Positions 354 through 5,441 are shown, numbered from the stretch's first letter. The stretch is 8,805 bases of DNA from a virus (IMGVR_UViG_2684622618_000007); one strand, 5' to 3'. Translations and numbers: made by a program. Notes: a model not told the origin generated them from the sequence alone.

Positions 354-411
354 ATGCTACATGATCACCTGGCAGAATGTCTGGAGAAAAAAGGACTGTA
401 CCGGAGAGCAG
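354..411 (+). CDS. Small hypothetical ORF, 5' part only (MLHDHLAECLEKKGLYRRA...), truncated by assembly gap
   Basis: ATG at 354 preceded by GGAGG at 343-347 with a 6-nt spacer; frame stays open into the N run at 412. Confidence 0.35.
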
Positions 412-499: not shown

Positions 500-828
500 T
501 TAAGTAAACCTGTCTGAACAGGTTCTCTGGTCGTGTTTGTCTTTGTTGGGTACAAATTGAGAATATTTTTCATTAATTAATCTTCTTCTGCAGGCTTCAA
601 TAACCCACGCTGAAAAATTTCCTGAACCTTTCAGATCAAGAGCGATGTTAATTTGTTCAATCATCTGGTTTGGAAATCGGATGTTGCGGGTTGTTGTNNN
701 NNNNNNNNNNNNNNNNNNNNNNNNNNNNNNNNNNNNNNNNNNNNNNNGATGTTAATTTGTTCAATCATCTGGTTTGGAAATCGGATGTTGCGGGTTGTTG
801 TTCTGCGGGTTCTGTTCTTTGATGACAT
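500..828 (-). CDS. Small basic protein, YlcI/DUF3950-like, putative ribbon-helix-helix DNA-binding protein; reading frame interrupted in this assembly by a gap and duplication
   Basis: Minus strand: ATG at 828-826 gives MSSKNRTRRTTTRNIRFPNQ; 664 down to stop TAA (complement of 500-502) gives MIEQINIALDLKGSGNFSAWVIEACRRRLINEKYSQFVPNKDKHDQRTCSDRFT. The two parts join into one about 74-aa ORF if the duplicated 54 bp and the 50 N are collapsed. Matches my memory of E. coli prophage YlcI-family proteins (not verifiable here). Confidence 0.55.
644..697. repeat. 54-bp direct duplicate, copy 1 (abuts gap)
   Basis: Identical to 748-801; ends exactly at the N run. Confidence 0.9.
698..747. other. Assembly gap (50 N)
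   Basis: Run of exactly 50 N. Confidence 0.97.
748..801. repeat. 54-bp direct duplicate, copy 2 (abuts gap)
   Basis: Identical to 644-697; begins exactly after the N run, consistent with unmerged overlapping contig ends. Confidence 0.9.
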
Positions 829-1027
829 AATGTTGCCCCATATTCAGTGTTGCTGATTTGTATTATCTGAAGTTGCTTTTACGTTAATTTGATGCAGATC
901 AATTAATACGATACCTGCGTCATAATTGATTATTTGACGTGGTTTGATGGCGTAGATGCACGTTGTGACATGTAGATGATAATTATTATCATTTTGCGGG
1001 TCCTTTCCGGCGATCCGACCGGTTACG

Positions 1028-1039
1028 GGGCGGCGACCT
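1028..1039 (+). other. cosN: cosN: 12-nt cohesive-end sequence GGGCGGCGACCT (terminase nicking site)
   Basis: Exact lambda cohesive-end 12-mer, preceded by GGTTACG (lambda right-end terminus) and followed by CGCGGGTTTTCGCTATTTATGAAAATTTTCCGG (lambda left-end start), as recalled. Confidence 0.85.
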
Positions 1040-1076
1040 CGCGGGTTTTCGCTATTTATGAAAATTTTCCGGGGAA

Positions 1077-1090
1077 AATCATGTCGGTAC
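1077..1090 (+). repeat. R3-like element (AATCATGTCGGTAC)
   Basis: 11/14 match to the repeat core. Confidence 0.5.
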
Positions 1091-1135
1091 TTCTCGAACA
1101 TAACTATTTGTTTTTTCTAATATCGAATCCGTAAA

Positions 1136-1149
1136 GGTCCGACATGAAA
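1136..1149 (-). repeat. R2-like element, inverted (reverse complement TTTCATGTCGGACC)
   Basis: 14/14 match to the R1-like copy, opposite orientation. Confidence 0.55.
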
Positions 1150-1176
1150 ACGCCTGAAAAAGTCATTTTCGGGCAC

Positions 1177-1190
1177 TTTCATGTCGGACC
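1177..1190 (+). repeat. R1-like element (TTTCATGTCGGACC)
   Basis: Exact copy of the repeat core, 25 nt upstream of the Nu1 start. Confidence 0.55.
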
Positions 1191-1214
1191 CTGTATTTGT
1201 TGTGAGACTGTTTC

Positions 1215-1734: not shown

Positions 1735-1760
<26 letters not shown>
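1215..1760 (+). CDS. nu1: Terminase small subunit (Nu1 family); divergent N-terminal winged-HTH domain, lambda-like C-terminal domain
   Basis: 181-aa ORF. C-terminal two thirds ([14 protein letters not shown]...LSEYIEQSG) match lambda Nu1 as recalled; the N-terminal 70 aa differ from lambda but retain an HTH and the GGGKG motif (nt 1308-1322). Overlaps the A start by 26 nt. Confidence 0.92.

Positions 1761-5441
<3,681 letters not shown>

Follow-up and report, generated by a model that had tools for sequence, protein, structure and literature searches.

A putative cosB of phage 21 type within a naturally chimeric (lambda/21) terminase module from an EHEC (O157:H7) prophage

The window analysed here is the whole of an 8,805-nucleotide stretch of viral DNA (IMGVR_UViG_2684622618_000007). 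Its features of interest lie between position 997 and the end of the terminase genes (Table 1) and comprise the elements of a cos site, the gene for the small terminase subunit (Nu1, encoding TerS) and the gene for the large subunit (gpA, or TerL). The head and terminase ORFs of the window are all intact. Homologues of Nu1, A, W, B, C/Nu3, D, E and FI lie directly downstream of the site, as in a full lambdoid prophage, and we rejected on these grounds a PICI cos, the type associated with Rpp-redirected packaging, in which a lambda-like cosN adjoins an unrelated cosB on an island devoid of terminase and head genes.

Table 1 Coordinates of the cos elements and terminase genes in the window. [quoted passage not shown]
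Feature	Position	Strand	Remarks
cosQ, GGGTCCT	998-1004	+	Inside the 'R4' box (997-1008); aligns with the M81255 R4 box, 136-147
cosN cohesive-end sequence, GGGCGGCGACCT	1028-1039	+	Identical in lambda and phage 21; nicking site ~1026-1041
I2 segment, interval between cosN and cosB	1045-1076	+	bp 18 to ~49; lambda-type sequence
R3, AATCATGTCGGTACTT	1077-1092	+	bp 50-65 from the cohesive end; critical TerS site by homology
I1, putative IHF site, AAACAAATAGTTA	1101-1113	-	bp 74-86; one mismatch to the consensus WATCAANNNNTTR
R2, reverse complement TTTCATGTCGGACCTT	1134-1149	-	bp 107-122; opposite in orientation to R3 and R1; same sequence as R2 of phage 21 (M81255 273-288)
R1, TTTCATGTCGGACCCT	1177-1192	+	bp 150-165; accessory TerS site by homology; aligns with M81255 316-331
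Putative 21-type specificity cassette (cosB and TerS codons 1 to ~70)	1073-~1426	+	~350 bp in lambda-like DNA
Nu1/TerS, 181 aa	1215-1760	+	Pfam Phage_Nu1, E = 5e-90
gpA/TerL, lambda-type	1735-3660	+	Pfam GpA_ATPase and GpA_nuclease; nicks cosN and translocates DNA, by homology

Many E. coli O157:H7 and O121 strains have chromosomal prophages that match the window at 100% identity from position 1000 to 1260. In strains TR01 and EDL933 the context is a lambdoid prophage, in which a PerC-family regulator gene and the lysis genes are found upstream and head and tail genes of lambda type follow downstream. In IdasGreatGrand, an isolated phage, the cosB/Nu1 segment is 98% identical. The PerC-family regulator gene, located about 0.7 kb upstream of cos (window 354-411; L008 8209-8523; L218 19137-19451), is cargo adjoining the packaging site; PerC homologues borne on lambdoid prophages of EHEC are regulators of LEE virulence genes. 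The PerC-family ORF (start 354) and a YlcI/YnfO-family ORF (500-828, minus strand) are interrupted by two runs of 50 N (413-462 and 698-747). At the first run about 300 bp of O157:H7 TR01, part of the PerC-family gene, are missing, and the flanks of the second run are duplicated (646-697 resembles 748-799). Both runs look like draft-assembly scaffold joins.

The left part of the cos site is of lambda type, as the initial annotation had proposed for the cohesive end and its immediate flanks. Identity to lambda is complete over 1021-1072, and within 997-1072 the two sequences differ only at 1011 and 1020. The cohesive end, a 12-nt sequence of the lambda group, falls on bases 1-12 of the phage 21 record OL657228, which are annotated as the cos nicking subsite, so that bp 1 of this record corresponds to window position 1028. 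The I2 segment has been delimited as bp 18-50 (PMC4856287). It contains four positions at which phage 21 differs and the window is lambda-like, and the I2 IHF site annotated in M81255 has its equivalent at window 1057-1071. At cosQ, the sequence GGGTCCTTTC is invariant or nearly so among the 21-type, lambda-type, Kluyvera, Citrobacter and Buttiauxella cos sites. Packaging termination requires cosQ. In the window it lies 30 to 24 bp before the cohesive end, reportedly the position of cosQ in lambda (Wieczorek & Feiss 2001). High conservation of the 7-bp cosQ has been described (PMC4669245).

Between cosN and the Nu1 start, the initial annotation had reported three TTTCATGTCGGACC-like elements with the second inverted, an AT-rich spacer between the first two, and no lambda-type R sequences. 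Matches to the pattern CATGTCGGNCC are located at 1080-1090 (plus strand, one mismatch), 1136-1146 (minus strand) and 1180-1190 (plus strand). There is no other match with up to one mismatch anywhere in the 8,805 bases, and a repeat search gave the same pairs. Positions and orientations therefore stand, as does the identity of copies 2 and 3, which extends across 14 nt (TTTCATGTCGGACC). Copy 1 (AATCATGTCGGTAC) is imperfect; because it still agrees at 10 of 14 positions, the looser wording of the initial annotation is fair. Within the 11-mer, two of the final three positions set R3 apart from R1 and R2. Three copies of the exact 9-mer TCATGTCGG are present in the 175 bp separating cosN from the Nu1 ATG; any 9-mer reached three copies in only 22 of 20,000 first-order Markov simulations. 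The lambda-type R sequence CGTTTCCKTTCT is absent from 1040-1214 at up to three mismatches, its sole nearby match being the cosQ/'R4' element at 997-1008.

The spacer between R3 and R2 is AT-rich as reported, with a GC content of 0.275-0.325 in two 40-nt segments that begin at 1080 and 1100 and jointly cover 1080-1139. It contains the IHF-like sequence at 1101-1113, which coincides with the I1 annotated at the same coordinates in OL657228; in register, the annotated I1 corresponds to window 1099/1101-1113. In the whole window there are 3 matches to the IHF consensus against 4.96 expected, which is chance level. Support for the putative I1 is thus positional, as the consensus match alone lacks statistical significance.

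Three R sequences with R2 inverted, placed between cosN and the TerS gene, are the R-site order that defines a complex cosB (PMC9026076). The distance between cosN and R3 is also that of the family. R3 of the window has the extent of lambda R3, bp 50-65, and the spacing from cosN to cosB is critical (PMC9026076). Directly downstream lies a gene for a Nu1-family winged-HTH TerS, followed by one for a gpA-family TerL.

When positions 900-1300 were compared with phage records by BLAST, phage 21 (M81255, X02501, OL657228) was found at 87% identity. The curated protein_bind features of M81255 and OL657228 give R3, I1, R2 (described there as oppositely oriented) and R1, then the RBS and gene 1. The R3, I1, R2 and R1 of phage 21 fall without gaps on the elements of the window, at an offset of 861 from M81255. 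The two sites share the order cosQ, cosN, I2, R3, I1, inverted R2, R1 and TerS gene, the coordinates of the four cosB elements, an identical cohesive end and the R core CATGTCGG (1180-1187 in R1). They differ in that identity over 1070-1400, covering cosB and the 5' part of Nu1, is only 87.6%. R3 matches its phage 21 equivalent (M81255 216-231; OL657228 50-65) except at 1081 (bp 54), where A replaces G, and R1 has two differences, at bp 161 and 164.

Lambda has a homologous architecture and spacing, R3(+), I1, R2(-) and R1(+), and its own R sequences fill the same alignment columns. However, these R sequences are CGTTTCC(G/T)TTCT in lambda, a form absent from the window. N15 has a lambda-family cosN and a Nu1-family TerS in common with the window, but its cosB consists of a single R3, GAGGTTGTTGTT (bp 48-59), with no IHF site and a TerS start at bp 89 (PMC4669245), compared with bp 188 in the window. 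Beyond about bp 45 no similarity to N15 is seen in the alignment, and we rejected an N15-type simple cosB.

Recognition and discrimination between the lambda and 21 classes have been assigned to R3 bp 56 and 59 and to TerS residues 20 and 24 (PMC4669245). At bp 56 (1083) and bp 59 (1086) the window and phage 21 both have G, whereas lambda has T and C. At the protein level the window and phage 21 have E20 and S24, and lambda has Q20 and E24. The TerS recognition helix RTIERWQS (residues 17-24) is identical in the window, in phage 21 gp1 and in PDB 7LWR, and the identity holds across residues 16-26. PDB 7LWR, a crystal structure of the phage 21 TerS DNA-binding domain with the sequence of phage 21 gp1 residues 1-54, is the best PDB match for residues 1-54 of the window TerS; 1J9I and 6HN7 are further matches. 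The lambda specificity class combines R sequences of the form CGTTTCC(G/T)TTCT with the helix RTIQNWQE, from which the window helix differs at residues 20, 21 and 24. Thus the window has the R3 G:C pairs at bp 56 and 59 and the E20/S24 helix of the phage 21 class, and lacks the corresponding features of the lambda class. In packaging, the 21 class is characterised by a more than 1000-fold preference for 21-type over lambda-type DNA (reference values in PMC4669245, Table 6).

We searched IMG/VR with the 70-aa DNA-binding domain and retrieved 80 loci at 93-100% identity. Together with phage 21 these gave 41 distinct cos sequences that form at least three sub-lineages. Across the 41 sequences conservation within cosB is highest in R2, where 2 of 16 columns vary, and R3 has 3 of 16; variable columns in the spacers number 17 of 41 between R3 and R2, 14 of 27 between R2 and R1, and 15 of 22 from R1 to the ATG. 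No variation occurs at positions 1083-1092 or 1180-1187, and the R cores are thus kept among relatives. The recognition helix (residues 16-26) is the same in all 80 of the associated TerS genes.

A search of genome contigs with the same domain yielded at least eight loci, seven of them lambda-type relatives at 61-63% identity. The matches listed for these relatives are from Kluyvera, Citrobacter, Buttiauxella and an Enterobacteriaceae isolate, and there is no further 21-type diversity among the matches listed. The eighth match listed, from a Planctomycetaceae MAG (L016), spans 18 residues. The helix RTIQNWQ(E/D) pairs with CGTTTCC R boxes in lambda, Kluyvera, Citrobacter and Buttiauxella (RTIQNWQD in the last three), and RTIERWQS pairs with CATGTCGG. 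Helix and R type therefore switch in step across the relatives, a co-variation as for a cognate protein-DNA pair. A separate search of viral contigs with the pattern ATGTCGG-N(40-60)-CCGACAT was too unspecific, as only 2 of 120 loci (L062 and L063) were genuine 21-type cos sites.

Taken from the DNA and protein comparisons, positions 997-1214 very probably constitute a complete lambda-family cos site with a cosB subsite of the phage 21 class. The initial annotation had suggested a TerS-binding site of a specificity class other than that of lambda, and homology to the R3, R2 and R1 of phage 21, next to a TerS with the phage 21 helix, argues that it was right. Since this class has already been described as that of phage 21, which the initial annotation had missed, the architecture is confirmed and is not new. 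The class is annotated, genetically dissected and structurally characterised.

The terminase genes combine the two phage types. gpA is 99% identical to lambda gpA (636 of 641 residues) and 67% identical to phage 21 gp2. Over residues 1-70, TerS shares 86% identity with phage 21 against 60% with lambda; over residues 71-181 it shares 97% with lambda against 50% with phage 21. At positions diagnostic for lambda or 21, the window is lambda-like as far as 1071, 21-like from 1073, and lambda-like again after a switch between about 1407 and 1430. The DNA around the cassette thus delimited is mostly 93-100% lambda-like, and W, B, C/Nu3, D, E and FI are about 97% lambda. Because the return from 21-like to lambda-like sequence falls inside the Nu1 gene, TerS is chimeric: its winged-HTH DNA-binding domain is 21-type, and its C-terminus, which would bind TerL, is lambda-type. 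The C-terminus of TerS and gpA are both lambda-type, and the subunit interface is therefore matched. Chimeras of this kind are common in nature: among the IMG/VR loci with the 21-type domain, the C-terminus is lambda-type in 59 of 80 and 21-type in 15 of 80. The sharp boundaries of the cassette exemplify how recognition site and DNA-binding domain move together as a single recombination module.

The arrangement resembles that of lambda-21hy51, a viable laboratory hybrid with 21 packaging specificity (PMC4669245). In both, 21 supplies the left end, consisting of cosB and the 5' portion of the TerS gene that codes for the HTH, and the TerS C-terminus and TerL are those of lambda. The window differs in being natural, in the length of the segment (about 350 bp against the approximately 600 bp stated for hy51), and in carrying a diverged 21-like allele. 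In design, the window is a natural counterpart of this hybrid. At Nu1 codon 86 (1470-1472) the window has Cys86, and Arg86 is found in phage 21, lambda, IdasGreatGrand and the two IMG/VR sequences compared. The residue neighbouring R86 differs in phage 21 (ERYRL versus ERHRL).

The steps by which such a site acts have been established in lambda and 21, and we infer IHF bending, protein binding and packaging specificity here by homology. According to the model of an IHF bend and a TerS dimer (PMC9026076), IHF would bind I1 and bend the DNA by about 180 degrees. The bend would set the inverted R3 and R2 opposite each other, so that a dimer of the TerS winged-helix domain could dock, with R1 in an accessory role. 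The lambda-type C-terminus of TerS would hold gpA, which would thereby be placed at a fixed distance on cosN, and staggered nicks by gpA at cosN would generate the 12-nt cohesive ends. Terminase is expected to remain on the left end that bears cosB, to dock on the prohead and to package rightwards. Termination at the next cos would proceed via cosQ, cosN and I2, whatever the type of cosB. The source of recognition specificity is predicted to be the helix RTIERWQS (E20, S24) reading the CATGTCGG core with its G:C pairs at bp 56 and 59. As this helix/core match is 21-type, the element should package 21-type DNA and discriminate against lambda-type DNA.

A different function for part of the region was also considered. 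R2, the spacer and R1 (1136-1190, 55 nt) form a near-perfect palindrome with a 23-bp stem (-36.6 kcal/mol, z = -5.3). The stretch could act mainly as a nucleic-acid hairpin, either a stem-loop or terminator in a transcript ahead of the head genes or a cruciform in the DNA, with the repeats as its arms. When only the inner part was shuffled, z was -2.9 to -4.3 in the window, phage 21, the L208 type and lambda, indicating that the spacer adds pairing beyond the R arms; since the paired spacer sequences differ between these four, the changes are compensatory. The extended palindrome is, however, absent from the lambda-type cosB of Kluyvera, Citrobacter and Buttiauxella. A terminator scan returned a single weak terminator-like match (1152-1174), 1 against 0.6 expected, and with counts at chance level a promoter or terminator was rejected as the primary function. 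An Rfam search gave no family at threshold and only generic hairpin matches below it, and a known RNA family was likewise rejected. A hairpin also leaves unexplained the presence of R3 at a fixed distance of 50 bp from the site of nicking, the putative IHF site that separates R3 from R2, and the co-variation of the repeats with the TerS helix. Because it fails to account for R3, I1 and this co-variation, a hairpin has an additional role at most, and we regard it as highly improbable that it is the main function of the stretch.

Two other explanations concern the phage 21-class cosB as a whole. The site could represent a further specificity class, related to 21 but functionally distinct, with a terminase that would not cross-package genuine phage 21 DNA. 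This would fit the divergence of about 12-14% from phage 21 in cosB and the DNA-binding domain, the substitutions in R3 (A for G at bp 54) and R1 (bp 161 and 164), and the existence of other natural R types (PhiR5_1 and L132, described below). It would also fit the TerS wing, which has G32 and G34, as in lambda, instead of the K32 and S34 of phage 21 (SGGGKGVES versus SKGSKGIES), at residues that are presumed minor-groove contacts; TerS has further changes relative to phage 21 at residues 7, 30, 37 and 45. Yet helix residues 17-24, with E20 and S24, K35 and bp 56 and 59 are all identical to 21, as is R2, and the A/G difference at bp 54 does not co-vary with the wing, L201 having the wing of the window together with the 21-like G. 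A functionally distinct class is therefore very unlikely. The least probable explanation is that the repeats arose by chance or persist, without any present function, as a decaying relic of a prophage that is defective. The window sequence is borne on the chromosome as a prophage, Nu1 has the R86C change, and the EDL933 copy of this prophage has a frameshift in its gpJ gene; the host prophage may be defective, so that the site may be out of active use in the genome of the window. Against a relic stand the rarity of a triple 9-mer in the simulations, the preservation of R cores in the 41 distinct sequences while spacers drift, the intact head and terminase ORFs and the isolated phage with a 98%-identical site. 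Within the preferred reading of a 21-class cosB, there is a small chance of something more. The widespread EHEC-prophage allele (the TerS wing and the roughly 12% of cosB that differs from 21) might be a sub-specificity that limits cross-packaging with true 21-type phages, or the 55-nt palindrome, which lambda-type and 21-type E. coli phages both keep although its sequence differs between them, might do a second job, for instance as an insulator or a hairpin in the transcript before the head operon, or as a cruciform that helps terminase to assemble.

We surveyed complete E. coli genomes for cosB alone (1072-1214) and found it at a coverage of at least 80% in 553 of 5426 genomes (about 10%), O157:H7 EDL933 and O121 strains included, usually once per genome and joined to a head module of lambda type. 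No RefSeq feature underlies the cosB match in any of the 30 records listed from this survey. The type of cosB can be read straight from the sequence, though it is unannotated in the 30 RefSeq E. coli records listed. In strains with many lambdoid prophages, the cosB type decides which terminase cross-packages which prophage. For a defective Sakai prophage, cross-packaging by another prophage with an identical cos has been proposed (PMC2669165). The finding reported by the initial annotation is correct but ordinary: a cosB of phage 21 type, set in a terminase module that is a natural lambda/21 chimera and belongs to an EHEC (O157:H7) prophage. It adds little new biology; lambda and 21 are the textbook example of a packaging specificity that lies in cosB and in the recognition helix of TerS.

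Several observations were made alongside. In E. coli Nissle 1917, ATCC 25922 and others (H118-H122), positions 1072-1115 (R3 and I1) alone match, at 95-98% by megablast, which suggests further cosB mosaics or more diverged 21-type sites. Two ORFs cross cosQ, cosN and R3, one at 844-1101 (minus strand, 85 aa), for which a Pfam search returned no match, and one at 976-1134 (plus strand, 52 aa). A coding function was rejected for both, as they overlap conserved cos subsites, and they are probably spurious gene calls. A 'hypothetical protein' CDS is annotated over the equivalent cos stretch of IdasGreatGrand (L003 1362-1640) and likewise in several other phage records.

The 21-type cosB is naturally joined to at least four cohesive-end sequences: GGGCGGCGACCT, GGGCGGAAGGCG, GGGCGGCAGCGG and GGGCGGGAGCGT (IMG/VR L164, L208 and L202, ~190-215 of each locus). 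The differences between these ends are confined to bp 7-12, where cohesive-end differences within the lambda group are known to lie (PMC4669245), and two different right-end flanks were also seen. Other R types were found in PhiR5_1 (L005, PV340545, ~495-620), namely CATGTCAGTTCT, CTGATGTCGTTTCT and CATGTCGTAAC with the helix RTIDRWQTQG, which is intermediate between 21 and lambda, and in the IMG/VR locus L132 from the viral-contig pattern search (minus strand from ~338), namely CAGATCCGTTCT, GATCCTTTCT and related forms. These R types, set in the R3-I1-R2-R1 architecture, may represent additional packaging-specificity classes.
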